64,000 nt of DNA. Source: an uncultured Bacilli bacterium. GTDB lineage: Bacteria; Bacillota_I; Bacilli_A; RF39; UBA660. The notes beneath the pieces are model-generated. The model ran no database searches and was not told where the DNA came from. It saw only the letters and a list, made by a program, of their open reading frames with translations. Location of the stretch: NCBI GenBank assembly GCA_944332475.1, contig CALVKA010000003.1, forward strand, positions 163,257 to 227,256, read 5' to 3'. This document shows positions 1-64,000 of this stretch, in pieces (positions within the stretch are counted from its first letter, which is position 1; each line of letters begins with the position of its first letter). Made by a program: the position numbers and the translations under genes.

Positions 1-2688
1 TATTTCTTTATCTTCCATATTAGTATCATGATACTTTTTAACTAATCCCAAAATGTAATCAATATTTACATCTATAGATTTAATTAATTCCATTTCAAAT
101 ACAACATCTTCAGAAACATCTGTTTTTTCTCTTTTTGTCTTATTTCTAAAGTCATTATATATTTCAATATAAAGGCTTTGGTAATCTTGTCTATCTCTTT
201 CTGATAACAATTGTTCATCTTTAAATTCATCAAATGAAGATAAAATATTAGTAACCTTTAGTATTGCACCATATAATTTAATAAATTCTTTTTGTGCTTG
301 CTCACCCTGCATTAATTCTCCAGGTACAAATTTGGATGTTAACTTTTCCACTAATTCTTTATATCCTTCAAATCTTTTACCATTTTCTTCTTCATATCCA
401 TAATAATAATCTTTATATGGTTTTAATAAGACTACACCATGTGCATTTTCATCGCCAAATTTAGCAAGGGCTTCGTTTAATCTATCTTCAAGATTTCTAA
501 ACGATACAATATTACCATAAGTTTTTACACTATTTAATATTCTATTGGTACGAGAAAAAGCTTGTATTAAACCATGCCATTTTAAATTTTTATCAACCCA
601 TAATGTATTTAATGCTTTAGCATCAAATCCAGTTAAAAACATATTAGCAACAATTAATATATCGATTTCTCTATTTTTCATTCTTAATGATACATCTTTA
701 TAATAATTTTGAAATTTTTCTGAAGATGTATCATAACTTGTTCCAAACATTTTATTATAATCTTTAATCGCGTTATCTAAGAAAGTTCTATCATCAATAC
801 TTAAATTTTCTGTTGATTCTGAATTTTCATCAATTACACCATCTTCGTTATTTACACCATAGGAATAAATAATTACAACTTTTAAATTACTATTATTCAA
901 GTCTTGTACTTTTTTAAACTCAGTATAATATTCTTTGGCCATCTTAATACTTGAAACAGCAAATATAGAATTAAAGCCATTTATATTCTTTTTGGTCTTA
1001 ATTTCTTCTGTGCTTTGCTTTTTAGCAACATCAACAACATTATCTAATGTAGAATAAACATAAGATTCATTTGTCTTTGTTTTAGTGCTAAAATGCTCAA
1101 TAATATAATTGGTGATTAGATTAATTCTAATTTTATTATCAAATAATTTTTCTTCATCAATATTATAAACTTTTTCATCTTTTATATCATCTCTAATGTC
1201 AACTCTACCAACATATTCATATCTAAAAGGCAAGACATTTTTATCAGCAATGGCATTTACAATTGTATAAGTATGCAATCTCTCTCCAAATACTTGTTCT
1301 GTTGTTTCAGATATTCCTTTAATAGTTCTAGCATTTTCTGGAAATATTGGAGTACCAGTGAATCCGAAAATATAATATTTTTTGAATTTTTTTATAATTG
1401 ATTTATGCATCTCTCCAAATTGGGATCTGTGACATTCATCAAATATAAATACTACATGCTTATTAAACACTTCACTTTCTGTGTTCTTTTTAATAAAAGT
1501 TGATAGCTTTTGAATAGTTGTGATAATGATTTTAGCATTATCATCATACAATTGATTTTCTAATACTTTTGTCGATGTATTTGAATTAGCTGCACCTTCT
1601 TTGAATTTATCATATTCTTTCATTGTTTGATAATCTAAATCTTTTCTATCTACAACGAATAATACTTTATCTATATATGAAAGATTACTAGTTAGTTGTG
1701 ACGTTTTAAAAGATGTTAAGGTTTTTCCTGAACCTGTTGTATGCCAGATATACCCTCCTGCTTTAATAGATCCATAAAGTTTATTATTGTAAGCGATATT
1801 AATTTTATTTAATATCTTTTCTGTTGCGACTATTTGATATGGTCTCATTACAAGTAATTCTTCTTCACTAGTAAAAACACAATATTTTGTTAAAACATTT
1901 AATAAAGTGTGTTTTGTTAAAAATGTCTTAGCAAAGTCAATTAGGTCAGTAATTCCTTTGTTTTTTTGATCTGCCCAATAAGATGTAAATTCAAATGAGT
2001 TAGATTTTCTTTTTATTTTATTATTTATATGAAATTCTCTTGTAGTATTAGAATAATATTTTGTTAGTGTTCCGTTAGAAATAATAAATATTTGTATAAA
2101 GTTATAAAGACCACTTCCGGCCCAGAAAGAATCTCTTTGATATCTTTCTATTTGATTAAATGCCTCTCTTAAATCTACGCCCCTTTTCTTTAATTCAATA
2201 TGCACTAATGGAAGTCCATTTACTAAAATAGTAACATCATACCTGTTATCATAATTACCATCATTATTAACATATTGATTAATAACTTGTAATCTGTTGT
2301 TATGAATATTATTCTTATCAATTAAGTATATATTTCTTTTTTCACCAGAATCTAAAGTTATTTCTTGTTTGTAATCTTCTTGTATTAATCTAGTTTTTTC
2401 TATTATATAATCATTTTTATTAGCAATAACTTTACTGAGGAAAAAATCCCATTCTCCATCTGTAAATTGATAATTATTAAGTTTTTCTAATTGATTTCTT
2501 AGATTTAGAATTAATTCATTTTCACTATGAATTGATAAGTATTCATATCCCTCTTCTACTAACGTATTAATCAATTCTTTTTCTAAAGCAGATTCACTTT
2601 GAAATGATGTTACTACTCTATCTAATGGTTTGTATTCTGCAAGCACTGTCGAATTATCATTTTCACTAATTAAACCTATATTATTCAT
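1..2688 (-). CDS. hsdR: Type I restriction enzyme R subunit HsdR (N-terminal ~895 codons; C-terminus runs off the left window edge)
   Basis: Own translation from ATG at 2686-2688 (minus strand) gives MNNIGLISENDNSTVLAEYKPLDRV..., with Walker A HTTGSGKT and DEAH-type box FDECHRSQ, typical of HsdR. No complete ORF is listed in the ORF track for 1-2688, consistent with one long ORF open at the edge. Start overlaps the stop of the upstream 148-aa ORF (ATGA). Confidence 0.85.
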   Translation of the reverse strand, partial: MNNIGLISENDNSTVLAEYKPLDRVVTSFQSESALEKELINTLVEEGYEYLSIHSENELILNLRNQLEKLNNYQFTDGEWDFFLSKVIANKNDYIIEKTRLIQEDYKQEITLDSGEKRNIYLIDKNNIHNNRLQVINQYVNNDGNYDNRYDVTILVNGLPLVHIELKKRGVDLREAFNQIERYQRDSFWAGSGLYNFIQIFIISNGTLTKYYSNTTREFHINNKIKRKSNSFEFTSYWADQKNKGITDLIDFAKTFLTKHTLLNVLTKYCVFTSEEELLVMRPYQIVATEKILNKINIAYNNKLYGSIKAGGYIWHTTGSGKTLTSFKTSQLTSNLSYIDKVLFVVDRKDLDYQTMKEYDKFKEGAANSNTSTKVLENQLYDDNAKIIITTIQKLSTFIKKNTESEVFNKHVVFIFDECHRSQFGEMHKSIIKKFKKYYIFGFTGTPIFPENARTIKGISETTEQVFGERLHTYTIVNAIADKNVLPFRYEYVGRVDIRDDIKDEKVYNIDEEKLFDNKIRINLITNYIIEHFSTKTKTNESYVYSTLDNVVDVAKKQSTEEIKTKKNINGFNSIFAVSSIKMAKEYYTEFKKVQDLNNSNLKVVIIYSYGVNNEDGVIDENSESTENLSIDDRTFLDNAIKDYNKMFGTSYDTSSEKFQNYYKDVSLRMKNREIDILIVANMFLTGFDAKALNTLWVDKNLKWHGLIQAFSRTNRILNSVKTYGNIVSFRNLEDRLNEALAKFGDENAHGVVLLKPYKDYYYGYEEENGKRFEGYKELVEKLTSKFVPGELMQGEQAQKEFIKLYGAILKVTNILSSFDEFKDEQLLSERDRQDYQSLYIEIYNDFRNKTKREKTDVSEDVVFEMELIKSIDVNIDYILGLVKKYHDTNMEDKEI

Positions 2689-3131
2689 TTTCTTTCACCA
2701 ACAATCTTTTTAATTTCATTTAATATTAAATCCATTCTTTTACCATCTAGCACTTTAGCGTACCAATTATAGTTACGGATATCCTTTAATTCTTTTAAAT
2801 AGTCTGCATTTCTAAAAACCACTACATCACCTAAAGGAACTGGTAATATAAATTCTAAAGTTGGGCCATATTCTAACATTTTTAAATCTGTGTAATCTTG
2901 TTTCATTTCAGTGCAATGTTTAAATGCATTATTAAAGGCTATACATGCATTCTTCAACTCGTCTTCTTTAGTTTTAGGATCTTTTATAAAATTATTAAAC
3001 AGTGCTCCTAATTGGCTGAAGGTATTAGCTGTTTTTCTATATAATGTTAATTCATCAAAATTGCATTTATTTACATATTCTGTTAAATCACTTAATTCTT
3101 TCCTTGCACTTTCTAATAATAATCTATTCAT
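2685..3131 (-). CDS. hypothetical 148-aa protein inserted between the prrC-like gene and hsdR
   Basis: Complete ORF in track; translationally coupled on both sides (2-nt gap upstream, ATGA overlap with hsdR). No recognisable motif. Confidence 0.5.
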   Translation of the reverse strand: MNRLLLESARKELSDLTEYVNKCNFDELTLYRKTANTFSQLGALFNNFIKDPKTKEDELKNACIAFNNAFKHCTEMKQDYTDLKMLEYGPTLEFILPVPLGDVVVFRNADYLKELKDIRNYNWYAKVLDGKRMDLILNEIKKIVGERK

Positions 3132-4221
3132 CTTTTACCTCCATTTTATAATAATTTATAAAATCCATAAATCCTTCTATAAATATTGTTTTTTCATTAC
3201 TTGTCAGCTCAAAATATTCAAACTCTGGCAAATTACCATGGCTATATAAATTGATTAATTTAATTAATTCTTTAGTATATTCTTTCTGTGGTAAACAATC
3301 TTCATATTTTTTATAGCCAAAATAATTTGCTGTCTTTTCTAATAAAATCCTAAACATATTAAAATTTATCTTTTCTAAACTATCATTATTGATAGCTTCA
3401 TTTATTTTTTTTACTAAAATTAAATGATATCCAAAAGGAGAATCACCCTTTTCTTCAAGACAATATTTGTATTTATTTTTTATTAAGACATAGGAATTAA
3501 ATTTAATATAGTTCTCTCTTTTTAGTAAATTGTAAATTGCATTATAAAATAATGCATGATGTGTTGTAATTAAAATACTGGGTCTATCTTCTTCTGTTAA
3601 TTCATTTATCCTTTCAATCAGCTCATATATTTTAACGGCTATATTCATTATTCTTATATCATCAATAGAAGATACAGGGTCATCAATTACAATATATTTA
3701 ATATTGTCAAAAATATCAGTTGATCTATTTTCTTTTTCTTCTTTTAGTTCGTAAATCATGGAATCTATAAATGTGTAAAATATACTCCATATAAAAAGAC
3801 TTTCTTCTGCTTTTGAAATTTTAATATCATAATCATATCCATCTTTAGTTTTAGCACTGAACTCTATTATACCACTTTCTAAATCCATTGATGGTTCAAT
3901 AATATCATCGCAAAATAACTTGAAGTTATCTTCAATTGCTTTTTCTAATCCCTGTTCAGTTATGAACTTAACTATCCAAGAAATGCTATTAATATTCAAA
4001 AATTGCGAATCATTTACCCAGGAAAATTCATCTTGAAATATCGAATTAAAACATAAAACTTTATCTTCCTGTTTCTCCGTAAACATTCTAGAAATTCTTG
4101 TTTTTCCGGTTCCATTGAAAGCATATATCAGATCAACTTTTATTTTTGTACTGAGACTATTAAAATCTTTATTAATTTCATTATATATTTGCTCTATATC
4201 TTCACTTTCTACTTTCTTCAT
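3124..4221 (-). CDS. prrC: PrrC-like anticodon nuclease (ABC-type ATPase N-domain plus C-terminal ACNase domain)
   Basis: Walker A AFNGTGKTRIS near the N-terminus. ABC-like Walker B/D-loop YIVIDDPVSSIDD. C-terminal R-x32-N-x3-H arrangement (MFRILLEK...LINLYSHGN) with a ~37-aa tail, mirroring the Arg320/Asn352/His356 arrangement of E. coli PrrC. Located between hsdS and hsdR exactly as in the E. coli prr locus. Confidence 0.6.
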   Translation of the reverse strand: MKKVESEDIEQIYNEINKDFNSLSTKIKVDLIYAFNGTGKTRISRMFTEKQEDKVLCFNSIFQDEFSWVNDSQFLNINSISWIVKFITEQGLEKAIEDNFKLFCDDIIEPSMDLESGIIEFSAKTKDGYDYDIKISKAEESLFIWSIFYTFIDSMIYELKEEKENRSTDIFDNIKYIVIDDPVSSIDDIRIMNIAVKIYELIERINELTEEDRPSILITTHHALFYNAIYNLLKRENYIKFNSYVLIKNKYKYCLEEKGDSPFGYHLILVKKINEAINNDSLEKINFNMFRILLEKTANYFGYKKYEDCLPQKEYTKELIKLINLYSHGNLPEFEYFELTSNEKTIFIEGFMDFINYYKMEVKDE

Positions 4222-4789
4222 TTTTTAATTCCTCAAAACTCAATAATTTATCTCTATAATATTCATATTGTTTTTTTCTTAATTCTATTTCAGCTGGTAA
4301 TCCTTCAGAAATACCATCAATTAACTTATTAAATTTGTCTAAAATACAAACAATCTTTTCTTGCTCTTCTAAACAAGGTAAATATATTTCAAAATTTTCA
4401 GTTATTGGTAGTGATATTTGTGGCATTGATCCCATTTGACTTCCCATACTTCTAAAATAATTAATATTATTTTTTAAATAGTAATATAGATACTTTACTG
4501 TAATTTGATTTTCACATGTATATGCCCACATTTCATTTTTAAACGTAAATGATTTATCATAGTAAATAAAATCTATTAGTCCTCTTGATTGGACAATAAC
4601 ACAAGGATAGTCAATAATATTAGCTTTTGGGATTTCTTCTATATTGGTGTTTACTGCAGTTTGTCCGCCAGCAAATATTTTTATATTACCATCCTTCTTT
4701 TCAATTTCTTTCATTTTACCAGCTGTTATTGAAGTTCCTTTTACTCTTTTAAAAGCATCACTTAATTTAACTTTTGTATATCCAAACAC
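4202..4789 (-). CDS. HsdS-related half subunit (single target-recognition domain plus C-terminal conserved region), GTG start
   Basis: C-terminus LPAEIELRKKQYEYYRDKLLSFEEL resembles the C-terminal conserved region of the upstream full HsdS (LPAEKELRQQQYEYYRDMLLTFAD). Start is GTG at 4787-4789. The in-frame upstream extension has no stop through the TGTC repeat. Confidence 0.7.
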   Translation of the reverse strand: MFGYTKVKLSDAFKRVKGTSITAGKMKEIEKKDGNIKIFAGGQTAVNTNIEEIPKANIIDYPCVIVQSRGLIDFIYYDKSFTFKNEMWAYTCENQITVKYLYYYLKNNINYFRSMGSQMGSMPQISLPITENFEIYLPCLEEQEKIVCILDKFNKLIDGISEGLPAEIELRKKQYEYYRDKLLSFEELKNEESRK

Positions 4790-4806
4790 ATATTGTAAAA
4801 GCCTAA

Positions 4807-5989
<1,183 letters not shown>

Positions 5990-7592: not shown

Positions 7593-8279
7593 TTATCTTC
7601 CAAGTATATCCCAGGCTGTAAGAATACCTATAACTTTTTCTTCTTTACCATTTTCTGTAACTAAAACACATGATAACTTACTTCCTTTTTTAAATTCATT
7701 AATAAATTCTAAACAAATATCATCATACAATCTATTTCTACTTGCAAATTTTATGATTTCTTTTGATTTGTTAAAACTTATAAAGTCTTTAATGTCCTTA
7801 AACAATGTATTTTCATCTATTTCTACAATTTTATTTTCATATAAATAATTAAATAATACCCCTTCACTAAAAATTCCTACTAATTTATTGTTGTCATAAA
7901 TTGGAATGTGAGTATAATTATTTTCCATCATCTTTTTCATTTTTTCTCTAACATTATCATTTAAATTAGCAGCATAAACGTTTTTGGTTGACTTATCATA
8001 AACTTTAAATGGATGCTTTATTTCTTCGATAATTCCATCTAATTTTTTTATCATATCTTCTCCATAAAAAATGAATTCATTTTCATAACTATTATGTGCT
8101 ATCCTATTTCTACACACTCTGCAAAAATCAATAAAGTCATATTGTGAGTAATAAGGTTCTCTATGTTTATTTTTTAATTCTTTAATCTTTTCTATTAATT
8201 TTTCATCCTTGTTTTCTTCATTTATTGTAAGTTTTTCAAATTCTAAAAATTTTCTTCTAAAAATTTCTGTGTTTTCCAT
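7593..8279 (-). CDS. HEPN-like (Rx4H) N-terminal domain fused to a tandem CBS-domain pair
   Basis: CRNRIAHN (R-x4-H) in the N-terminal ~110 aa. C-terminal ~120 aa has two CBS-like repeats (HIPIYDNNKLVGIFSEGVL... and SCVLVTENGKEEKVIGILTAWDIL). Lies 28 nt upstream of hsdM, same strand. Confidence 0.45.
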   Translation of the reverse strand: MENTEIFRRKFLEFEKLTINEENKDEKLIEKIKELKNKHREPYYSQYDFIDFCRVCRNRIAHNSYENEFIFYGEDMIKKLDGIIEEIKHPFKVYDKSTKNVYAANLNDNVREKMKKMMENNYTHIPIYDNNKLVGIFSEGVLFNYLYENKIVEIDENTLFKDIKDFISFNKSKEIIKFASRNRLYDDICLEFINEFKKGSKLSCVLVTENGKEEKVIGILTAWDILGR

Positions 8280-8308
8280 CGTTATTATTAACTCCGTTTC
8301 ATATAGTA

Positions 8309-9139
8309 TTAAAATAATTCTTTCACAATTAAATCTTCTGAATGTAAATTATTATTTTTACCTAATAACAAATTCTCATAAAATTTAATTAAATAAATTT
8401 TATCCTCTTTTATATTTAAGTAATTATTGAAATAATTACTTCTTACTAGTGCATTTCTAAAATATACTGATTTATCTTTAAATAATGAGTTATCTGCTTT
8501 GTATCCAAGGCTAGTTAAATATTTTTCTATGAATACTGCTGTTGTTCTAGTGTTACCTTCTCTAAAGGGATGTACTTGCCAGATATTAGATGTAAAATCA
8601 GTAATATTTTTAATGACTTCTACAATATTCATATTTTTGTAGTCTTTCTCTTTTTCTAGACTAATATCATATTCTAATGATTCTGTTAATGTTTTAGAAT
8701 CTCCATAAGCAACTGAATCATTATTTAATATTTTTTCATGTTTCGAAAAATCTATTTTTCTAAACTCTCCTGCAAATTCATAAACATCTTGAAATAAATA
8801 TTTATGAATATATTTTAGATAATCTACTGATAATTCAAAATTATCTTGATTTAATAATTCAACAATTCTCATAGATACAAAATCACATTCTAATTCATTA
8901 TGATTAATATTCTTTTCTTTTGTGGTGTAATATTCTTTTAGACTTTGTTCTACTTCTTTTAGTGTTAATTCACCTAAGATATTTTTTTCTTTTAGTTGTT
9001 CTAAGTATTTAGATGGTTTTAAATTATCTACTTGTTGTAATCCTATAGCCATATCCCATTGTAACTGTTTTACATATCCTTTGGGATATGTTTTTTCTTG
9101 ATATGGATTTAGGCTGGAATCTAGTTCTTTTTCGCTCAT
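8309..9139 (-). CDS. Fic/Doc family protein (degenerate Fic motif HPFREGNTRTT)
   Basis: Fic core motif HxFx(D/E)GN(G/T)R present as HPFREGNTR; 276 aa. Confidence 0.75.
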   Translation of the reverse strand: MSEKELDSSLNPYQEKTYPKGYVKQLQWDMAIGLQQVDNLKPSKYLEQLKEKNILGELTLKEVEQSLKEYYTTKEKNINHNELECDFVSMRIVELLNQDNFELSVDYLKYIHKYLFQDVYEFAGEFRKIDFSKHEKILNNDSVAYGDSKTLTESLEYDISLEKEKDYKNMNIVEVIKNITDFTSNIWQVHPFREGNTRTTAVFIEKYLTSLGYKADNSLFKDKSVYFRNALVRSNYFNNYLNIKEDKIYLIKFYENLLLGKNNNLHSEDLIVKELF

Positions 9140-9165
9140 TTTATCACACCCAACATTTCTATTTC

Positions 9166-9194
9166 ATTATATCAGTTTTTTTATTATTAGTAAA
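9166..9194 (-). promoter_or_regulatory. sigma-A-like promoter for the fic-HEPN/CBS-hsdMS operon (-35 TTTACT, 17-nt spacer, -10 TATAAT)
   Basis: Minus-strand TTTACT at 9189-9194 and TATAAT at 9166-9171, spacer exactly 17 nt, ~25 nt upstream of the fic start. Confidence 0.35.
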
Positions 9195-9229
9195 TTTAGC
9201 ATTTTTACTAATTGGTAAAAAATGGCAGT

Positions 9230-9967
9230 TTATTCTATATCTAAGTCTTCTTTATAATTTATACAATTATTTAAAATATTTAAAAGTTCTAATTTCAATT
9301 CACAATATTTATTTCTTTTTACATACCTTTTATCAATCTCCATTAGCATTTTATCAGTGTATTCATACAATATATAAATTAAATACGTTAAATTTTCCAT
9401 CCAAACAATTCTAGTTTTTGATAAATAATTATTATCATGAAGATATTCACTTAATGCTTCAAAATCATTATATATTTTTATATCTATTAATTTACATACA
9501 TCTTTAAAATTATAATTTTTTAATTTTACAGCATTTTTAATCCAACTATAAGGTCTTTGATCATCAAAACAATCACAAGAAATATTAAGAAAATCACATA
9601 ATCCTTCATAATCTTTTTTTATTCTGCTATGATATGGTTCGTTGCCGATTTTTTTCATAGCTTTGTATGCTCCATGTAAATACCAATATTTCCATATTTC
9701 TTTTTGTTTATATTTTTTTATTATATAAAAACAAACATAATTTTCAATCATAATTCGTAATTTACATGCTAAACCATTATAGTCTTCTATTAATATACAT
9801 GATAAAGCTTTTTGTAAATAGTCTAAATGTTTTTTTAAAAATAGGTTTTTTATGCCGTTATAGTCAGAAGTAATCATACAATACTCTCTTTTTGTCTGCT
9901 CAATATAATCAATATACTTTTTTAGTGCTTTTATTTCTTCTTTTTCTATATTGTAAATGTTATCCAA
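9230..9967 (-). CDS. hypothetical 245-aa protein (Cys-rich, no recognised domain)
   Basis: Complete ORF; first gene of the island next to tRNA-His. Confidence 0.5.
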   Translation of the reverse strand: MDNIYNIEKEEIKALKKYIDYIEQTKREYCMITSDYNGIKNLFLKKHLDYLQKALSCILIEDYNGLACKLRIMIENYVCFYIIKKYKQKEIWKYWYLHGAYKAMKKIGNEPYHSRIKKDYEGLCDFLNISCDCFDDQRPYSWIKNAVKLKNYNFKDVCKLIDIKIYNDFEALSEYLHDNNYLSKTRIVWMENLTYLIYILYEYTDKMLMEIDKRYVKRNKYCELKLELLNILNNCINYKEDLDIE

Positions 9968-52000: not shown

Positions 52001-53083
52001 TTATTGTCCAGGATTTATAGGTTGTTCAGGAGCTTGTTGTTGTACTACGATAGTTGGTTCAGCGGTTGGAGTTTGAACAACATTTTGTTGGTTAGGACCT
52101 ACAAGATTAGAAATTGGAATAGATTGTGTATTTTCTAATGGATTTGCTCCTCCATATATTTGATGTTGTGGTTCTTGAATGTTAATTTCTGGAACAATTG
52201 GATTTGCTCCTCCATAAATAACTGGTCCTTGTTGTGCAGCTTGTTCTGCTACTGGGGCAACTGGTTCTGGTGCTGCTGTTGGTGTAACAGGAGCTACCTC
52301 AGGTGTTGCCATTGGATCTACCGTTGGTGCAACAGGAGCTACTTCTGGAGATGCCACTGCATCTACCGTTGGCATTACTGGAGCTTGTTCTACTGCTGGC
52401 ATTGCTGGTTCTGGTGCTACTGTTGGTGCAATAGGAGCTACTTCTGGAGATGCCACTGGGTCTACCGTTGGCATTGCTGGAGTTTGTTCTACTGCTGGAG
52501 TAACAGGTTCTGGTGCTACCGTTGGTGCAATAGGAGCTACTTCAGGAGATGCCATTGGTTCTACTGTTGGCATTACTGGAGCTTGTTCTACTGCTGGCAT
52601 TGCTGGTTCAACAGCAGGTGTTACTGATGTTGCTTCTGCTGGCATAACAGGAGCCACTTCTGCAGTTGGCATTCCTTGTACTGAAGGTTGTGCCAATGGG
52701 TCAACAGGTGAAACTGCTGGTGCAGGTGCTGAAGCATCCATTGTTGGCATTGCCATTGTATTTGCTACATTTGGGTCCATTGGTTGTTGTGGTGTAGCTT
52801 CCACTGGAGCTGGAATATCCATAATGCTTCCTGTTGATAATACAGGTGAATTCATTTCTGGGGCTGCTCCTGTTGGTGTTGCTGTTGGTGTAGCGACAGC
52901 TTCTGCTTGTGGTGTAGCAGTTGGTGCTGGTTGTGCAGCAGCTGCATCCGTATTTTCTGCTGGTGTGTCTTTCTTTTTCTTACGTGTTGCTATTAAAATA
53001 ATTAACGCTATTAATAATAATAATACTCCTGCTGATATTAATAAACCTGGTATTGATGTGAACCAGTCTAAACTAAAATCCAT
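52001..53083 (-). CDS. membrane-anchored Pro/Ala/Thr/Val-rich tandem-repeat protein
   Basis: N-terminal TM plus KKKK stop-transfer, then ~33-aa repeats (VAPIAPTVAPEPVTPAVEQTPAMPTVDPVASPE). Confidence 0.6.
   Translation of the reverse strand: MDFSLDWFTSIPGLLISAGVLLLLIALIILIATRKKKKDTPAENTDAAAAQPAPTATPQAEAVATPTATPTGAAPEMNSPVLSTGSIMDIPAPVEATPQQPMDPNVANTMAMPTMDASAPAPAVSPVDPLAQPSVQGMPTAEVAPVMPAEATSVTPAVEPAMPAVEQAPVMPTVEPMASPEVAPIAPTVAPEPVTPAVEQTPAMPTVDPVASPEVAPIAPTVAPEPAMPAVEQAPVMPTVDAVASPEVAPVAPTVDPMATPEVAPVTPTAAPEPVAPVAEQAAQQGPVIYGGANPIVPEINIQEPQHQIYGGANPLENTQSIPISNLVGPNQQNVVQTPTAEPTIVVQQQAPEQPINPGQ
52270..52640. repeat. ~99-bp intragenic tandem repeats (about 3.5 copies) inside the Pro/Ala-rich gene
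   Basis: Near-identical 99-nt units starting about 52308, 52407 and 52506, read directly. Confidence 0.8.
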
Positions 53084-54711: not shown

Positions 54712-56556
54712 TTATAAAATCTCTATGTTTTTTTGATCTTGTCCTAATATTTTATCTAGTTTTTCTTTAATTTGATCTTTTGTAAATGGTTTTGATATAT
54801 AGTCGATAAACCCTTCTTGTTTATATTTTTCTTCTGATCCTGAGATAGCATCTGCTGTTACGGCAATTACTGGTATAGAAAATCCTTCTATTTTCTTTAA
54901 TTCTCTTAAAGCGTGTTCTCCACTCATTACTGGCATCATAATATCCATTAATATTATATCATATTGATTACCATTTTTAATTTTATCAATACATTCTAGC
55001 CCGTTATAACATTCATCCATCTCTATATTAAATCCATCTAGGGCTCTTCTTGCTACTTTTATATTTAATTTATTGTCATCCACTATTAATATTTTTTTAC
55101 CACTAAGATCTATACTTTTCTTAGTTAAAAGTTCTGAGGTATCTTCTTCTGATGGTCTTACTTTATGGTCTATTTTTTGTGGTAGTTGTACCATGAAGAT
55201 AGATCCTTCTTTATATCTACTTTCTACATTGATAGTTCCTCCCATCAATTCTACTAATCTTTTGGTAATGGCTAGTCCTAAACCTGTTCCTTCGGCTGTA
55301 GTGTTTCTTTCTACATCAAGTCGTTCAAATTTTGTAAACAACTTATTGATATCTTCTGCTTTGATTCCTCGTCCACTATCTCTTACACTGATGATTAGTA
55401 AACAGGTATCTTGTTTGTTGATGCATTTTACGTTTAATTCTACAAAACCTTTTTCGGTATATTTAATGGCGTTCGATAATAAGTTGTTTACTACTTGTTT
55501 GACGTGAGCTTTGTCTCCTATTAGATGATAGGGAATATCATCGGCGATATTGATTCTGTAATCGATTGGTTTATCTCCTATTCTAGTCTGTTCTACTCTG
55601 GCTAGGGTTTCGATTTCTTTTTTTAAGTTATAGGATACTTCTGTGATTTCTACTTTGTTACTTTCGATTTTATTGATATCCATAATATTTCCAACAATTT
55701 CTAACAGAGTTTTGGAAGCTGATACGATATCATCTAAATCTTCTTTCATACTGTCTGGGCAGTCTTTGTTTCCTCTTACATCTTCTGATAATCCTACAAT
55801 AGCATTTAGTGGTGTTCTTATTTCATGAGACATACTAGATAAAAAGTCACTTTTAGCACGGTTCGCACGTTCTGCTTGGTCTTTCGCAACATTTAATTCT
55901 GTAATCATTTTAGCATCTGGATTTTCTATTGTATAAAACATTACCAATAAAGCAAAAGATATGCAGTAGGTTTCTGTTGTTACTTCTGGATAATAGGCTC
56001 TTAATATTAATCCACCTATAAACATAACTAATAATACAAGAAACGGTATTATTTTTTTAATTCCTGCTTTTTGATGTATAAAGTAGTATATATTTAATAC
56101 AATCAATCCTATAAAATAAACAATTAATCCCATCATTAAAATTTTATAAGCTATTCCACCTACATCTAATATTTCTCCATCAATAATTGTGTTAATCGGG
56201 GTTATAAAAATTAAAATGACTAGGATTGTATTTATTATAATCAATGTTTTTTTTGCTTTTTCATATTTTTCTTCTGCAAATTTATTAATAATTAAATTAT
56301 AAATGACTAAGCAACAACCAATTGTTAAAAGTAGACTTAAATGAAATCTTTGTAATAGGGATACCATCCAAATTAAATTGGTCTTTTCTGCGAATATGTA
56401 GGCAATAGTTGCGTTGATACAAAATATTACATTCATGATTAACGTCCATTTATATAATTCTACTTCCCTTGTTTTTACATTATCTTTTGTAAAAAAGGCA
56501 ATGATTAAAAAAATACTAATGGTTACTGCTGCTAGTGGAAGCCAAATACCACTCAT
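54712..56556 (-). CDS. hybrid sensor histidine kinase/response regulator (5-6 TM sensor, HisKA, HATPase_c, REC)
   Basis: H-box [14 protein letters not shown]; G-boxes; C-terminal REC domain ILIVDDN...[10 protein letters not shown]. Confidence 0.8.
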
Positions 56557-57662: not shown

Positions 57663-58505
57663 TTACGAAGCTGGTGTAAATTCTTTTCCATATGTTGTGA
57701 TTAAAATACTTGGTCCATAGTATAGAATCTTTGGTTTTTCTTTGTAATATTTTGTTAGTGTTTCATCTTTTTTCATTTTATATTTGCAGGCTATGTCTAC
57801 ATATTCTGTACATTGTTCTTTATTTGTTATCGTCATTCTATAGATTTCATCTTCTGTTTTTAGATAGGTTGTTGTACTGTCTCCGGCATAGTTAAAATCT
57901 ATAATAGTGCCATATTCACTTTCTTCATATACTGGTGTCTTTTCTGTTAATGTATATGGAGAATTATAATCTTGTCTTGTTACTGTATATTGATATACCG
58001 TTCCATCATCTTCTAACACGTAATATATTCCAGCATTTGAGTCTACTGTCATAACTTTTTTTACTGTATCTTTGCCTAGTAAAATATTATATAGTTGATA
58101 ATTACTATCGTTTTGTGTCACTTCACTAAGTGGAGAAGAAGCCGTAGTACCTGGTGCATAATAGAACTTTCCGTCATCTCCTTTTAATATTGTTCCATCC
58201 ATATAGGCGATTATGTCAATAGAAAAAGAAATCCTTTTACAATTTTCTTCGTTGCTGTATGGTTGTGATAAAGATAGTTCATATAATTTTCCATCATCTG
58301 TAATAGCATAAGAGCCATCAGTATATAAAATATTGTCTGTTGGTGGTGTCTCCTCATTTGCTGGCATTAATGTAGAACAGACAAATTCATCAGATGATAA
58401 GCTGAAGCCAGCGTGTCTAATTTCTCTTGTTACTGTACCATCACACCCTGTTAATAATAATGTAGCAACTGCCATTCCTACTATTAGACCAATCTTCTTT
58501 TTCAT
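57663..58505 (-). CDS. lipoprotein (lipobox LLTGC)
   Basis: MKKKIGLIVGMAVATLLLTGCDG signal peptide with lipobox. Confidence 0.6.
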   Translation of the reverse strand: MKKKIGLIVGMAVATLLLTGCDGTVTREIRHAGFSLSSDEFVCSTLMPANEETPPTDNILYTDGSYAITDDGKLYELSLSQPYSNEENCKRISFSIDIIAYMDGTILKGDDGKFYYAPGTTASSPLSEVTQNDSNYQLYNILLGKDTVKKVMTVDSNAGIYYVLEDDGTVYQYTVTRQDYNSPYTLTEKTPVYEESEYGTIIDFNYAGDSTTTYLKTEDEIYRMTITNKEQCTEYVDIACKYKMKKDETLTKYYKEKPKILYYGPSILITTYGKEFTPAS

Positions 58506-58637: not shown

Positions 58638-59243
58638 ATGAAAACGTCTAATAAGAAAAAAGATTTACGGTTTGTTATATTTTTTGTCGTTATTGTTTGT
58701 TGTTGCCTTGTTTATTTATTCCAGTCTTCTTATGCTAGATATCGAAGAGGAATTTCAGGTAGTATTTCTAGCGAAGTTGCCAGTTGGAATATCAAAGTAA
58801 ATGGTGAAGATATTGCGAATAAGAAAACACTAACGAATACTATTGAGCCTACATTTTTAGAAAGTGAAAATAGTCGTGGTGGAGTCATAGCTCCAGGGGT
58901 GGAAGGCTACTATACTATTACGATTGATGCAAGTGATGTTGACGTTCCGTTTGAATGTACTATTCGTTCGGAGGTATCTCCTGATTCTAGTGTTAGTGAT
59001 TTAAAAACTTTGTCTTATGAAATCAATCCAACGGATACAGAAAATCGTCTTACTTATTCAGAAGATACGGGAATTGTTCAAGAAATTCCTAGAAATACAC
59101 AAGAATATGTTTTTCGTATCTATCTTGTTTGGGACGATGATACTGGAAATATGGATAATCAAGCTGATACAGAGGTTGGAATTGATGATAATAGTAAAGC
59201 ATTGATGCAAGTTAGTTTACATTTTACTCAATTAAATGAATAA
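58638..59243 (+). CDS. hypothetical exported protein, possibly camelysin/TasA-like
   Basis: N-terminal signal anchor; beta-rich acidic mature region; convergent with the sipW-tasA-like pair. Confidence 0.35.
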   Translation: MKTSNKKKDLRFVIFFVVIVCCCLVYLFQSSYARYRRGISGSISSEVASWNIKVNGEDIANKKTLTNTIEPTFLESENSRGGVIAPGVEGYYTITIDASDVDVPFECTIRSEVSPDSSVSDLKTLSYEINPTDTENRLTYSEDTGIVQEIPRNTQEYVFRIYLVWDDDTGNMDNQADTEVGIDDNSKALMQVSLHFTQLNE

Positions 59244-59267
59244 AGAAGGATAAAATTTATCCTTCTT

Positions 59268-60020
59268 TTAGTTTGCTTGTGTAACATTTAAATCTACTTT
59301 TAATTGTAGACAAGGATTTCCTGTTTCTTGTTCATATTTTCCACAGGCATAACCGAAGAAACTATCGGCATCGTCTTTTTCTAGATAAAGACCTGTTGCA
59401 ACTTTTTCTGAAAAATTCTCTTGTGTTACTGTATTATCTACTTGATACGTATCATCGACTAAAGTATAGTAATATACTCCTGCATCGTAAGTATATAAGC
59501 TATTCAATTTATAATAAGCACTTGCTTGATAATCCCAGTTTAACATTATTTTGAAGTTAATCATCTGTCCTATTTGGATGTCATCATGATCACTGGTTAA
59601 TTCTAAGATAAATGGATATTCTGTTTTTAAGCTTTCTACTAGTGCATCTTCTTGTCCTTCTTGCAAAAGCTCATTTCCTAATAGTTTGGCCGAAGTAATT
59701 GTATAATCGATATTAGCTGCAACATCACTATTATTTTGAATCTGTATATCATACTCAAATGGAATCATACCTGGTTTCATGTCTGTGATATCTATTATTA
59801 CTTCTTTAATCGCTCCATTTTCATTTAAAAACGATATATCCCAGTCAATAACACTTCCGTTTAATGTTAAGCCAGCCCTTGAAATATAAGTAAACCAGGC
59901 AAATGTATTCACCACTAGTAGTAAAGCAACCAGTAAAATACTTCGAATTACTATTTTTTTTCTGGACTTTTTGTTGTCTAGCTGGACTAAATTGTCAGAT
60001 AATTTCTTCCTTTTCTCCAT
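59268..60020 (-). CDS. TasA/camelysin-like protein with SipW-cognate-type signal peptide
   Basis: Signal region ...LLVVNTFAWFTY resembles the SipW-cognate class signal (A-x-F-(S/T)). Directly downstream of and overlapping a SipW-type peptidase gene; start chosen at internal Met (MEKRKKL). Confidence 0.4.
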   Translation of the reverse strand: MEKRKKLSDNLVQLDNKKSRKKIVIRSILLVALLLVVNTFAWFTYISRAGLTLNGSVIDWDISFLNENGAIKEVIIDITDMKPGMIPFEYDIQIQNNSDVAANIDYTITSAKLLGNELLQEGQEDALVESLKTEYPFILELTSDHDDIQIGQMINFKIMLNWDYQASAYYKLNSLYTYDAGVYYYTLVDDTYQVDNTVTQENFSEKVATGLYLEKDDADSFFGYACGKYEQETGNPCLQLKVDLNVTQAN

Positions 60021-60591
60021 TTTCTTCCGCTTCCTTGTCTTTTTTATCACGTTTCATTTCTGTTATCGTGTCAGCAATTTCTAAAAATATGACTGCTACA
60101 AGAGGTACAAATATCAAGAAGAAGAAGCCATATTGATTTTTAATGATATGATTGATTTCTGTAATTACAGGAATTTTCCCTACTACTTTACCATATATTT
60201 GGTTACCTTTGATTGAAGGGTCTTCTGCAATATTATTAATTCCTTTTGTAATATAGATTTTTTCTCCATTTTCTTCTTTTATTTCTATAATTCTATGGGT
60301 AACAATTCTTCCGTTTACATCTAATTTATTTCCTAGATAAGTAATGTCATCTCCTACTTTTAATTCATCTGTATTTATTTCTTTGATGGCTAATACATCA
60401 TTAACATTATATTCTGGTATCATACTTCCTGTTGCGACAGAGAAAATACGATATCCAAAAATACTTTGATTTCCTGAGATTCTTTGAATTAAGATAAAGG
60501 CTAGGTATAATATTAAGATTAGAAAAATAATAAATTTAATAATCTTATAGGGAATTTGAAAATATTTGCTGTCTAGTACTTTTCTTAACAT
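59995..60591 (-). CDS. sipW: signal peptidase I, SipW type (S26 family)
   Basis: VATGSMIPEYNVNDVLAIKE matches the SGSMEP...GDL catalytic-Ser box; N- and C-terminal TM segments. Start taken at the second Met to limit overlap with the upstream gene. Confidence 0.6.
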   Translation of the reverse strand: MLRKVLDSKYFQIPYKIIKFIIFLILILYLAFILIQRISGNQSIFGYRIFSVATGSMIPEYNVNDVLAIKEINTDELKVGDDITYLGNKLDVNGRIVTHRIIEIKEENGEKIYITKGINNIAEDPSIKGNQIYGKVVGKIPVITEINHIIKNQYGFFFLIFVPLVAVIFLEIADTITEMKRDKKDKEAEENGEKEEII

Positions 60592-61712
60592 ATACTCGTC
60601 TCCTCTAGTATGTTCCAATCCTTTATATATTTCTTTTCTTCTTCTTCTAATTTGTCTAATAACAATTTTTTAATTTTTCTTTTCTTTTCTTCATTAGCTG
60701 ACTTAATTAACTTTAGTTGTTTATCAAATAATTCTTTAATTTCTTTTTCTGTGATTTCATAATTACTATCTAGTATATTTTCAATTAAGCGATTCATTGT
60801 TTGGGATAGTAATTTATCACTCGTTACTTTTTGTCCTTCATGGTTTAATACCTTGTTAGCAATATATAAAGATAAAAATGCTTGGTTGTATTGTTGTTTT
60901 AAATCGCTTTCGTCATAGTAGTCTTTCTTTTCTCTTTCGTTGGTGTCTTTATCTTCATACATTTGAATATAATTCCATAAGTTTTCTGCTTTTTGGAAAT
61001 TTGGATTTTTTAAAATTACGTTCGTTTTTCTAATAGGTGAACGAACTGGTGGGGTATGGGCTTTTGTTAATGTCTGCATCAATTCTGATCCCATAAAACC
61101 ATCTAATTGAATTTTAATTCTTTTTAATTTATCGGCAATGGATTCTTCAGAAGATGTGTCTTTAGAATTTAATTTTGCTTCATTTTTTGATGAAATATCT
61201 AGTGATATTTCTACTTCTTCTGTATCAATTACAGTATTTGCTTCATAGCGTAGTTCTTTTCTATCTTTAAAGAAAGAGAACTCACCTGTTTCATTTTTTC
61301 TTTTTTCGAAGAATGTCCTTGTATTATTAATTAGTGTATAAATAAATCTATTTTCATAGGTGTCTAGACTTTCTTCTTTGTTGATATTTAGAATTTTGGA
61401 TGGTTTTACATCCCCGTTATCTTCAATCTTTTGAATATAGTTTGTATGTTGTGTCAAGTGGATAATACTTTCTACTGTTACTTTTTTTGATTTTTCTACT
61501 TGTACTACCTCTTCTTCGTTGATAATAAATCTCTTAGGATTTCTTAGAATGTTATCAATATAAGGAAGGGTCTCATCGATAATATCTATCCATTCATAGT
61601 CATACTCTCTTTTTTCATAATCTGTTTTTACAGAAAGTATGGCATTCATATTGTTGGTAAAAATATCTTGATTGGTGGATTGTTCCAATACTTCTTGTTC
61701 TTCTTGATCCAT
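60585..61712 (-). CDS. unknown 375-aa coiled-coil protein in the McrC position of an McrB-like module
   Basis: Immediately downstream (19-nt gap) of the McrB-like GTPase; C-terminal Lys/Glu-rich coiled coil; no McrC DAKYK-type nuclease motif found. Confidence 0.4.
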   Translation of the reverse strand: MDQEEQEVLEQSTNQDIFTNNMNAILSVKTDYEKREYDYEWIDIIDETLPYIDNILRNPKRFIINEEEVVQVEKSKKVTVESIIHLTQHTNYIQKIEDNGDVKPSKILNINKEESLDTYENRFIYTLINNTRTFFEKRKNETGEFSFFKDRKELRYEANTVIDTEEVEISLDISSKNEAKLNSKDTSSEESIADKLKRIKIQLDGFMGSELMQTLTKAHTPPVRSPIRKTNVILKNPNFQKAENLWNYIQMYEDKDTNEREKKDYYDESDLKQQYNQAFLSLYIANKVLNHEGQKVTSDKLLSQTMNRLIENILDSNYEITEKEIKELFDKQLKLIKSANEEKKRKIKKLLLDKLEEEEKKYIKDWNILEETSIC

Positions 61713-61731
61713 GAGATTCCCTCCTTTATTC

Positions 61732-63285
61732 TTATACTAGTTTCTTTAGTCTTAATAAGTACTCTTTACATTCATTAAAGTTTTCTTTTCCAAATTCTTT
61801 GTTTAGAAAATCAATAAATCCATCGATTTCATCTCTGATATAAGCTAAGTTCAATTGTTCGAACTTTCTTAAGATTTTTCTAGCAATATAGTAATCTACT
61901 CCGTCTACTTCTGTTCCTCCACATTCTATGTAGGTTGCGACAAAGTCTCTCATTTGTTTAACAATACGGTTACCGAAAGCAATACGGAAATGTTTGATTA
62001 CATAGTCATCCATTTCACTAATTTTTTGTTCCATATCTTCTGATAATGGGTGCTTTTGTTTGGCATCTGCAAATAATCCTTCTAGATATGAGCTGTTGAT
62101 ATTCATTGCTTCTGTATCTGTTGGAGTAAATGGTTGCCCCTTATCATTGATGTCGATTGGCATAGCACGGTCGTATACCTTATCTGTAACGGCAAATGTA
62201 GAGTCATCATTATTGATGGTTCCGATATACCACATGTTACCGGGAATTTGTAATTTACCATTTTTTAATTTTTTAGGGTCTGTATCCCAACTACTTGGTA
62301 CTAACTCAATTACCCATTCATCACGGCTAGGCATTTCTAGAATAGATAACATTTCGGCGAAATAATATTCGACACGAGCGATGTTCATTTCATCTAGTAC
62401 GGTTACATAAACATCATCTGTGTAACCTGCTATATACATTCCTTTTAACACATCTGTTTCGTTGAACTTTTTCGTAAACTCATTGAAATAACCAAATAAT
62501 TCTGTACGGTCTCTCCATGATGGTTGAACAGATGCGATGATAGCGTCACGTTTGATAAATTTTCCCCAGGCGTAAGCAAGGGATGTCTTACCAGTACCAG
62601 AGATACCTTGTAGGATTACAAGTTTTGTTGCAGATAAAGCTGATATGAATAATCGAATCATTTTGGTTGTGTAATATAGTTTTAATTTTGATGCTGCAAA
62701 ATTTCTAAATTCTTCGACTAATTCTTCTAGTGTAAATGTGTTGTTATAGTTTTGTACTTTATAATCTCTATATTGCAAGTCGATAGCATGTAGCTTGGAG
62801 AAACGATATTTGCTGTCGTCTTCGTCTAGTGCTGGATCTTCTCCTTCTTTTGCTTCTGCTGGTTTTGTTTCTTCTTCACTTAATATTTCTGCTTCTCCTG
62901 GTTTTAATCCTAATTGAGAAACTTTCATGGCTAGTATTTCTTCTTTTTCTTTTACTAGGGTTGCGACTTTATTATTTAATTCACCTATTTCATTTAACAT
63001 TGATTCTTGTTCTACTAATGTTTTTCTAAATCTTAAATATTTTCTAATTAGTAACCAAAGTAATAGTAAAATCAATCCTAACATGATAACTAAAACAATA
63101 ATCGCTATGATAACTAAGACCCATTCTGCCATTTGAAAGTCATTTTTGTAAAATTGAATAATATATAGATATTCACTAAAATCAAACATTTGGGCAAATC
63201 CTAGTACAATACCTCGCCCTATTGTAAATAGTCCATTAAAGAAAACAGACATAAATTCATATAAAAATCTTATAAATGTGTCCAT
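61732..63285 (-). CDS. McrB-like AAA+ GTPase (AAA_5) with N-terminal transmembrane helices and coiled-coil in place of a DNA-binding domain
   Basis: Walker A LQGISGTGKTSL; McrB-signature LDEMNIARVEYYFAEMLSILE and IGTINNDD. N-terminal 90 aa contain two hydrophobic helices (FFNGLFTIGRGIVLGFAQMF; WVLVIIAIIVLVIMLGLILLLLWLLI), then a coiled coil and an acidic linker. Confidence 0.7.
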   Translation of the reverse strand: MDTFIRFLYEFMSVFFNGLFTIGRGIVLGFAQMFDFSEYLYIIQFYKNDFQMAEWVLVIIAIIVLVIMLGLILLLLWLLIRKYLRFRKTLVEQESMLNEIGELNNKVATLVKEKEEILAMKVSQLGLKPGEAEILSEEETKPAEAKEGEDPALDEDDSKYRFSKLHAIDLQYRDYKVQNYNNTFTLEELVEEFRNFAASKLKLYYTTKMIRLFISALSATKLVILQGISGTGKTSLAYAWGKFIKRDAIIASVQPSWRDRTELFGYFNEFTKKFNETDVLKGMYIAGYTDDVYVTVLDEMNIARVEYYFAEMLSILEMPSRDEWVIELVPSSWDTDPKKLKNGKLQIPGNMWYIGTINNDDSTFAVTDKVYDRAMPIDINDKGQPFTPTDTEAMNINSSYLEGLFADAKQKHPLSEDMEQKISEMDDYVIKHFRIAFGNRIVKQMRDFVATYIECGGTEVDGVDYYIARKILRKFEQLNLAYIRDEIDGFIDFLNKEFGKENFNECKEYLLRLKKLV

Positions 63286-63287
63286 AC

Positions 63288-63995
63288 TTATCCTTCCTTA
63301 CTAAATAAAATTCCTTTCATATTGACTGGTTCTTCTTTTTCGATGATAGAAAAATCCTTTTGTTTATATCCTGTTATCATTAAATAAACAAAATAGTTTG
63401 AGCTATCTATTGCCTCTATTTTACCTGGAATATCTATGATGTGTGTTAGGTCTTGATAACAGATGAATTGATATCCTTCTTTTTTCTTTTCTTGAATGGT
63501 TTTACTGGTTAACATTTGGTTATAACTAATTCCTAATAGCGTATGTTGTTTTAAGATATCATCGTCTAATAATTGATAGACTGTGTTTATCCATTCTTTT
63601 TTGGTCCATAAACTATCTGGTATTAGGATAATGTAGTTACCAAATGGCCTTTTTTCTACTAGTTGCTGCAATATTATTTGATTCAATAAAATAACAGATA
63701 GTTTTATTTTTTCTGCTACTATTTTTTCTTCTTGATCTACTCTTTTTACTAAACTTTTCTTATAGATATCTAATTGCTTTATATTTGATATTATTTTTAG
63801 TTCCCATAAATTTTCTTCATAGGGAATTTGATTTAACATAAAATTTTTGTTAGGGCTTAATACTGTTTTGATTACTCTTTCTGTTTCTTGCCATTTTTTT
63901 ATCCATGTTTTCGTGGCTGTTTGTAATACAGGAAGTTGTCTATTTAATTTATTTATTATATTGGTTACTATCTCTTCTACATTTTCAGTAGTCAC
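63288..63995 (-). CDS. hypothetical protein, first gene of the McrB-like module (N-terminus may extend beyond the window)
   Basis: Stop overlaps the McrB-like start (coupled). GTG at 63993-63995 is the furthest in-window start, with no upstream stop before the window edge. Confidence 0.35.
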   Translation of the reverse strand: MTTENVEEIVTNIINKLNRQLPVLQTATKTWIKKWQETERVIKTVLSPNKNFMLNQIPYEENLWELKIISNIKQLDIYKKSLVKRVDQEEKIVAEKIKLSVILLNQIILQQLVEKRPFGNYIILIPDSLWTKKEWINTVYQLLDDDILKQHTLLGISYNQMLTSKTIQEKKKEGYQFICYQDLTHIIDIPGKIEAIDSSNYFVYLMITGYKQKDFSIIEKEEPVNMKGILFSKEG

Positions 63996-64000
63996 TTTTT

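Follow-up and report, generated by a model that had tools for sequence, protein, structure and literature searches.

McrBC is the textbook modification-dependent restriction motor. Among its relatives, an NxD signature in the GTPase defines a branch that comprises the CoCoNuT and CoCoPALM systems, and the name CoCoPALM was given to an architecture in which an NxD McrB-like GTPase is fused to an FtsB-like transmembrane (TM) and coiled-coil region, is associated with signal-peptidase genes and has a coiled-coil-bearing McrC homologue (Bell et al., 2024; PMC11090510). A link to pili was described in the same work, which deferred the analysis of CoCoPALM to a later paper (Bell et al., 2024; PMC11090510). 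Here we examine a module from one end of a 64,000-nucleotide stretch of DNA of an uncultured Bacilli bacterium (GenBank contig CALVKA010000003.1, positions 163,257 to 227,256; hereafter the window), where three minus-strand open reading frames (ORFs) within positions 60585-64000, named X, B and C, encode a protein with a predicted degenerate EAL-like fold, a membrane-anchored McrB-like GTPase and a McrC-like partner, respectively. An NxD GTPase, a TM anchor, an adjacent protein with the McrC N-terminal domain DUF2357 and an association with signal peptidases are all present, and the module is therefore CoCoPALM-type. It belongs to a class that is named and experimentally untouched, and is not the undescribed system that a first-pass annotation of the window had proposed.

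We further conclude that this McrBC-derived GTPase pair, having lost its DNA-reading and nuclease parts, probably works as part of a gene cluster whose products build extracellular fibres or pili in a SipW-dependent way. The existence of the class and its likely pilus link are already in the literature; new here are the component X, which in some genomes is fused to SipW, the split between active and inactive SipW copies, a junction motif shared by the fibre-like and some giant proteins, and three conserved gene layouts.

The membrane-anchored GTPase and its McrC-like partner

The B protein carries complete Walker A, Walker B and Asn/Asp signature motifs (Table 1), as the first-pass annotation had recognised. 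Below E = 0.7, the sole Protein Data Bank (PDB) sequence matches of B are Escherichia coli McrB (6hz4, 6ut6, 7vsr; E = 2e-5 to 5e-5), in an alignment that runs from Walker A to the signature motif. The NCBIfam McrB model matches B with E = 1e-6, below the cut-off of that model, and Pfam AAA_5, which is weak in B itself, matches 26 of 31 members of the family. An exhaustive search returned 8,171 representatives related to B at E <= 1e-3. Among the top 150 relatives the signature reads GT[AIV]-N-x-D-[DE]-STF; because the Asn and the first Asp are invariant and x varies freely, B carries the NxD variant and not the NxxD of canonical McrB. An ungapped pairwise alignment to E. coli McrB had suggested that NNDD be read as NxxD, an assignment that the family-wide N-x-D-[DE] pattern led us to reject. 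That the whole catalytic set of Walker A, Walker B and NxD is invariant implies real GTP turnover.

The N-terminal 165 residues of B consist of a weak hydrophobic segment (residues ~4-29, Kyte-Doolittle 1.3-1.4), a TM helix, a basic stretch, a helical segment and an acidic linker, and family searches matched no DNA-binding family in this region. The earlier proposal that a membrane anchor and an acidic linker had taken the place of the DNA-reading domain therefore stands, but the two TM helices that it counted hold only in part, one being strong and the other weak. Homologues of B carry one or two TM helices at this position, many of them with two clear ones. From the positive-inside rule and the need of a GTPase for GTP, we infer that the GTPase domain is cytoplasmic.

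The neighbouring C protein passes the Pfam cut-off for DUF2357 (E = 5e-11; 42.7 bits, cut-off 23.3), and in structural comparisons McrC ranks first. The first-pass annotation had treated this 375-residue partner as a protein of unknown kind with no recognisable nuclease motif; the first point no longer holds in view of DUF2357, and the second does. Family searches with C yield DUF2357 only, a single-sequence search of the PDB gave no meaningful matches, and across 78 homologues no Asp or Glu beyond residue 122 is conserved at 85% or more. To judge from these comparisons, C has no detectable PD-(D/E)xK nuclease. Together with the B motifs and the PDB matches to E. coli McrB, the DUF2357 domain bears out the derivation of the module from McrBC.

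Conservation in C is concentrated in two blocks, residues 51-125 and 223-246, and the AlphaFold2 (AF2) model is mostly helical after residue 190. In the Clostridial homologues about 340 extra C-terminal residues follow, matching coiled-coil-type families only. Residues 63-113, within window positions 61284-61664, are the best conserved across the 78 homologues, yet form the worst region of the AF2 model (pLDDT, a predicted score on the local distance difference test, < 50), a combination that would fit a segment ordered only upon binding the putative B ring. A hairpin at residues 146-181 is confidently modelled and poorly conserved.

Coupling to SipW and the fibre-like genes

The three ORFs were confirmed on the minus strand where the first-pass annotation had placed them, and they are tightly packed. 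As read from the sequence, X and B meet at TAA-GT-ATG, with a 2-nucleotide spacer and the ribosome-binding site within X, and B and C are separated by 19 nucleotides that include AAAGGAGG. The junction of C with the next gene, sipW2, is an overlapping ATGTTAA in which the sipW2 start codon overlaps the last codons and the stop of C. X, B, C and sipW are thus translationally coupled, which extends down the operon the coupling already claimed for the gene upstream of B. The SipW2 protein matches the NCBIfam SipW model (E = 9e-27) and TIGR02228 (E = 1.5e-25; 89.9 bits against a cut-off of 51.85), its catalytic Ser and His columns are intact, and TM helices lie at residues 26-44 and 164-182.

A scan of one genome per species found at least 548 matched stretches encoding a relative of B. 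Gene content was compared, with our own ORF and profile pipeline, in 81 loci: 80 that were kept from uncultured Bacilli and Clostridia, with 53-90% identity over full-length B, and L001, a metagenome contig that encodes a B protein identical to the one in the window and was used to view the cluster beyond the window end. C lies directly downstream of B in 80 of the 81, the exception being cut by a contig end. Every locus has a SipW-family ORF, and an intact SipW gene stands directly upstream of B or directly after C in 80 of them, including all 73 in which both flanks are present. Fibre-like genes occur in 79 loci, with the f260 family in 78, and the convergent fibre-like gene is kept in most loci that share the layout of the window. 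X lies immediately upstream of B in 56 loci, in 11 of which it is fused to SipW.

Three layouts recur among these loci, written here with S for SipW, f for a fibre-like gene and SX for a SipW-X fusion. The layout of the window, S-f-f-f-X-B-C-S-f, is found in 45 loci, S-SX-B-C-S-f in 11, and f-S-B-C(long)-giant ORF, which is without X, in 23 that are mostly from Clostridia. The SipW copies divide according to position: those adjoining B-C all retain the catalytic Ser and His, whereas approximately 46 of 72 distal-upstream copies are apparent pseudo-peptidases that lack both. The second SipW-like gene of the cluster itself (211 residues; L001 5996-6631, just beyond the right end of the window) has His/Ala in place of Ser/His and has lost both catalytic residues.

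In the small fibre-like proteins the N-terminus is basic and is followed by a hydrophobic helix that leads to a junction, for example NTFAWFTY or SSYARY. The SipW-specific site of TasA has an aromatic residue at P2' as its hallmark (PMC10269814), and a SipW-type junction with this feature is present in 59% of fibre-like ORFs versus 4% of background ORFs in the related loci. Within one fibre subfamily A-W-F is invariant. TIGR04088, the SipW-dependent-type signal peptide, was the only curated family matched more than once, in 5 of 87 fibre-like proteins; the mature domains have no Pfam or NCBIfam match (87 and 45 proteins searched), and a profile of the AWF subfamily found no TasA or pilin among PDB sequences. 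The neighbouring genes, previously labelled sipW-tasA, do encode SipW and proteins of the SipW-substrate type, but homology to TasA was not detected and the label "tasA" is not established.

Giant ORFs of 1,200-2,750 residues flank most related clusters, and some begin with a SipW-type junction. The one at the head of the cluster on L001 (positions 1-5893; 2,751 residues, the gene continuing upstream) has no Pfam or NCBIfam match in the 1,963 residues examined, and a complete giant ORF on another locus (L054 13876-21072) carries Peptidase_M26_N and GLUG motifs.

The constancy of this setting bears on whether the module could serve anti-phage or anti-plasmid defence of the McrBC or CoCoNuT kind, acting through an unrecognised effector or membrane-level abortive infection. 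B derives from McrB, sits in the NxD clade that also holds CoCoNuT systems and matches the PADLOC candidate model PDC-M26A with E = 1e-34. That match is limited to the AAA+ core, however, C and X match no PADLOC model, and nuclease or effector domains were not detected in any cluster protein. SipW and fibre-like genes accompany the module in essentially all relatives examined (79-80 of 81 loci), a context constant across genera and not that of a variable defence island; the first-pass annotation had itself named such conservation as an argument for a morphogenetic and not a defence role. No mobile-element families are among the Pfam and NCBIfam matches of the cluster genes, the G+C content of the cluster (0.26-0.35) is the same as that of its flanks, and a PHROGs search gave nothing relevant. 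We therefore consider a defence or restriction role, under which the first-pass annotation had also viewed the module, very unlikely; its other suggestion, an envelope-associated role indicated by the link to sipW and a fibre gene, agrees with the flanking of B-C by SipW in 80 of 81 loci. McrB or PADLOC PDC-M26A matches in such clusters should not be taken as defence systems.

Other relatives of B show a related association. In polytopic relatives (L094-L168; ~600 residues with 3-5 N-terminal TM helices), a longer SipW-family gene, encoding 312-405 residues, precedes B in 53 of 80 metagenome loci. After B, a series of ORFs of ~430, 255, 530, 810 and 370 residues is conserved, and the 430-residue ORF in the McrC position is matched only occasionally by the C profile. 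Two membrane-anchored subgroups have no SipW gene nearby (L091-L093 and L095; L130, L140, L145, L157, L160-L162 and L164), one pairing a B of 800-870 residues with a C of 1,047-1,190 and the other a B of ~545-565 with a C of ~440. Not every membrane-anchored NxD GTPase is thus tied to SipW.

X, an EAL-like protein joined to SipW in some genomes

Metagenome contigs with an identical B supplied the part of X beyond position 64000, an extension that the first-pass annotation had called for, and resolved it as a protein of 354 residues (L001 8934-9998). The AF2 model of X is confident (pLDDT 88.9; predicted template modelling score 0.84) and has an N-terminal helical bundle followed by a hairpin, then a long helix and an alpha/beta domain. 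Two fold searches with this model place the alpha/beta domain closest to the TIM-barrel-like EAL fold, with the receptor-type EAL proteins FimX and LapD among the nearest matches, and suggest that the C-terminal part of X is a degenerate member of that fold. The sequence of helix bundle, hairpin and alpha/beta domain had raised the possibility that X was a second McrC-like protein, which was ruled out when both fold searches gave EAL.

The relationship to EAL proteins is not visible by sequence comparison. Pfam EAL gives no match to X at E <= 0.1, the X profile reaches only a designed TIM barrel and no EAL protein among PDB sequences, and cyclic di-GMP-binding or catalytic EAL residues of X are not detectable by sequence. 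Across 48 family members only five aromatic residues are nearly invariant and no polar residues are conserved. The family is narrow and fast-evolving, with 27 clusters in a word-indexed search and 15-20% identity between subgroups.

An earlier iterated profile of X drifted into SipW because real SipW-X fusion proteins exist, and the profile used for the locus counts was built from unfused members. The fusions occur in 11 loci (L049, positions 7748-9913, L052, L058, L064, L065, L068, L069, L077, L080, L082 and L086). They are 646-756 residues long, consist of SipW with its two TM helices followed by X, and are always encoded directly upstream of B. Since X is fused after the second TM helix of SipW, it lies in the cytoplasm, on the same side as the GTPase.

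These features of X suit a reading in which B-C and X act as a GTP-gated regulatory switch or checkpoint, sensing a cytoplasmic signal (a nucleotide pool, a cyclic dinucleotide or secretion stress) and toggling SipW processing or fibre export without mechanical work. The predicted EAL fold has among its closest matches the receptors FimX and LapD, which control pili and adhesins, X is fused to SipW in 11 genomes, the pseudo-peptidase SipW paralogue suggests regulatory layering, and TasA-type fibres are not known to need a motor. The lack of conserved polar residues in the X family and of a Pfam EAL match argues the other way, as do the Clostridial layout without X, an Rfam search of the cluster that found no riboswitch or other regulatory RNA, and the GTP turnover implied by the invariant motifs of B. 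On balance, a switch that does no mechanical work seems unlikely to us.

Proposed role in fibre biogenesis

Gene association, the SipW-X fusions, the logic of the topology and the retained catalytic motifs together support a functional connection of the module with SipW-dependent fibre biogenesis, the role that we favour. By analogy with McrB, B would form a hexameric GTPase ring, which six N-terminal TM hairpins would hold against the membrane from the cytoplasmic side, and the DUF2357 domain of C would insert into this ring and stimulate GTP hydrolysis as McrC does for McrB. X may join the ring to the active SipW by binding its cytoplasmic tail, and in some genomes X is covalently a part of that SipW. 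Conformational cycles driven by GTP could then be transmitted across the membrane to gate or drive how the fibre subunits and the giant adhesin-like protein are processed and how, in order, they are polymerised or extruded, in loose analogy to the cytoplasmic ATPase that drives type IV pilus assembly. As to whether the module is a motor or a switch, the EAL-fold adaptor and the pseudo-peptidase point to regulation of some kind, while the invariant hydrolysis motifs favour real turnover.

In its most specific form, this proposal would cast X-B-C as the engine that powers a kind of pilus or fibre assembly machine not recognised before, in gut Bacillota. A membrane-embedded McrB-like ring with a McrC-like shaft would be docked to SipW through an EAL-fold adaptor, and GTP would drive or gate the polymerisation and extrusion of Sec-exported subunits and a giant adhesin. 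We offer this engine only tentatively, as a possible but somewhat doubtful elaboration.

Several observations weigh against a role of the module in fibre building. To our knowledge, the tapA-sipW-tasA fibres of Bacillus assemble without any nucleoside triphosphatase (NTPase), so a motor is not obviously needed. X is not universal, being absent from 24 of the 81 loci, and some polytopic relatives of B have no SipW gene nearby. The fibre-like proteins, searched singly and as profiles, show no sequence match to TasA, camelysin (Peptidase_M73) or any other solved fibre subunit. The AF2 model of C has low confidence (pLDDT 58.7). No experimental evidence exists for any CoCoPALM, and a literature search found no follow-up paper. 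Two features expected of the class were not reproduced in this member: the coiled coils that the first-pass annotation placed in the N-terminus of B and at the C-terminus of C lack statistical support, a heptad test with a shuffle control having failed to separate them from effects of composition (the heptad score of B residues 92-119 is no better than that of shuffles), and homology to FtsB/DivIC appears in one of 31 family members (a weak Pfam DivIC match, E = 0.012) and not in B itself.

That one DivIC match, and the FtsB homology reported for the N-terminal region of the class (Bell et al., 2024; PMC11090510), would be in keeping with a cell-division or envelope-morphogenesis factor that acts through an FtsB-like N-terminal domain and is unrelated to the neighbouring fibre genes. 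No division genes lie nearby, however, and the translational coupling to sipW and the constant SipW/fibre association tie the module to secretion. The topology also differs: FtsB has an extracellular coiled coil, whereas in B the whole chain beyond the TM helix has to face the cytoplasm if the GTPase is to reach GTP. We regard this explanation as highly improbable and retain the involvement in SipW-dependent fibre biogenesis.

The broader interest of the locus lies in a GTPase-activator pair that no longer has the parts for reading and cutting DNA, sits anchored in the membrane and is tied to a secretion and fibre cluster, with relatives in hundreds of genomes of uncultured gut Bacillota. If the pair powers or gates fibre assembly, it would represent a new energy-coupling principle for the surface structures of monoderm bacteria, and a clean case of a defence motor repurposed, or of the reverse. 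Were the assembly engine outlined above correct, it would provide an NTP-driven route separate from the sortase, type IV and chaperone-usher pathways and from TasA-type self-assembly, and the McrBC motor would have its first task away from nucleic acids. Concrete, testable hypotheses on interactions follow from the fusions of SipW with X, from the SipW paralogues that are inactive and from the three layouts.

Cluster boundaries and neighbouring genes

The positions of the cluster genes and of the motifs discussed above are collected in Table 1. Beyond the window end, L001 shows upstream of X three further fibre-like genes, f192, f209 and f310 (192, 209 and 310 residues), then the second SipW-like gene and the 2,751-residue ORF. 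From the upstream giant gene (L001 ~5930) to the hairpin that begins at L001 14018, the coding strand has no other terminator-like site.

Table 1. Features of the X-B-C cluster, with positions in the 64,000-nucleotide window and residue numbers of the encoded proteins
Feature	Position	Strand	Description
X	63288-63995	-	C-terminal 235 residues of a 354-residue protein; start beyond the window end
X, C-terminal domain	~63291-63851	-	Residues ~168-354; predicted degenerate EAL-like fold
B	61732-63285	-	517-residue membrane-anchored McrB-like AAA+ GTPase, NxD clade
B, TM helix	63064-63120	-	Residues 56-74; Kyte-Doolittle mean 3.68; basic stretch RKYLRFRK after it
B, acidic linker	62791-62910	-	Residues 126-165; 33% Asp/Glu
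B, Walker A	62584-62607	-	GISGTGKT, residues 227-234; G227, G230, G232 and K233 invariant in the family alignment
B, Walker B	62389-62400	-	VLDE, residues 296-299; D298 invariant in the family alignment
B, signature	62203-62214	-	N358-N-D360-D361 (TINNDD, residues 356-361); NxD followed by D; N358 and D360 invariant in the family alignment
C	60585-61712	-	375-residue McrC-like protein; DUF2357, no nuclease detected, long C-terminal helix
C, DUF2357	61284-61664	-	Residues 17-143; Pfam
C, long C-terminal helix	60600-60749	-	Residues 322-371
SipW2	59995-60591	-	Endoplasmic reticulum (ER)/archaeal-type signal peptidase I; catalytic Ser/His intact
f260	59268-60020	-	Secreted fibre-like protein (250-260 residues); SipW-type signal-anchor and junction NTFAWFTY
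Terminator-like hairpin	59242-59268		Bidirectional; 12-bp stem; L001 14018-14044; ends the operon
f201	58638-59243	+	Convergent fibre-like gene, 201 residues; paralogue of upstream f192 (BLASTP E = 6e-16)

Just past the convergent fibre gene, a predicted lipoprotein of 280 residues (signal ending LLTGC) is encoded on the minus strand at 57663-58505. It is kept only in the 8 closest loci and therefore probably stands outside the core of the module. At 54712-56556 on the minus strand, about 3 kb downstream of the cluster, lies a hybrid histidine kinase with HisKA, HATPase_c and receiver domains and a polytopic N-terminus, which is syntenic only in the closest relatives. Farther along, the G+C content reaches a local peak of 0.38-0.46, against a background of ~0.30, between 51500 and 53500, over a 360-residue ORF (52001-53083) whose counterparts have 359-393 residues across strains (L001-L008), with no Pfam match on record.

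Comparison with known systems

Canonical McrBC of E. coli K-12 (6hz4, 6ut6) shares with the present module an AAA_5-type core with Walker A, Walker B and Asn/Asp signature motifs, and a DUF2357 partner encoded directly downstream. The two differ in the signature, NxD here and NxxD in McrB, and in the N-terminus, where B has a membrane anchor and an acidic linker instead of a DNA-binding domain. The McrC homologue of the module is without a detectable PD-(D/E)xK nuclease, and the surrounding genes are those of secretion and fibres, not of restriction-modification.

The CoCoNuT systems (types I-III; Bell et al., 2024; PMC11090510) are nearer in that they belong to the NxD branch, often have McrC homologues without an active nuclease and carry helical or coiled-coil additions. 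Their GTPases have long soluble coiled coils and no TM helix, whereas B has a TM anchor, and they come with nucleases, HEPN or other, and with RNA-binding domains; no such domain was found among the cluster proteins here.

On the secretion side, the tapA-sipW-tasA operon of Bacillus subtilis and the sipW-bsaA operon of Clostridium perfringens (PMC11580942) likewise place a dedicated ER/archaeal-type SipW beside its substrates, which have an aromatic P2' residue in their signal peptides and comprise several paralogous secreted subunits. Those operons have no NTPase, in contrast to the X-B-C module here; the mature subunits here have no detectable similarity to TasA/camelysin or BsaA, and the cluster adds at least two SipW paralogues, one of them inactive, and a giant adhesin-like protein. 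The C. perfringens paper (PMC11580942) also contains the word "McrBC", which we rejected as a link because it is merely part of an E. coli strain genotype.

Type IV pilus machinery (the PilB ATPase, PilC platform and PilD peptidase) offers an analogy only: it has a hexameric NTPase on the cytoplasmic side of the membrane, a leader peptidase of its own, and subunits that a hydrophobic N-terminal segment keeps in the membrane before they assemble. There is no homology: the NTPase here is AAA+ and McrB-like, not PilB-like, and the peptidase is a type I SipW on the outer face, with export presumably through Sec.

The closest described system remains CoCoPALM. FtsB homology and coiled coils, which belong to its published description, were not reproduced for this member (DivIC in one of 31 family members; heptad score no better than that of shuffles). 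The module agrees with CoCoPALM in its NxD GTPase with an N-terminal TM and helical region, in its nuclease-free DUF2357 neighbour with a helical tail, in its signal-peptidase genes and in its occurrence in Bacillota, and we see no conflict between the two. The published description runs to a few sentences, to which the present locus and its relatives add X, the SipW-X fusion, the pseudo-peptidase paralogues and the three layouts.

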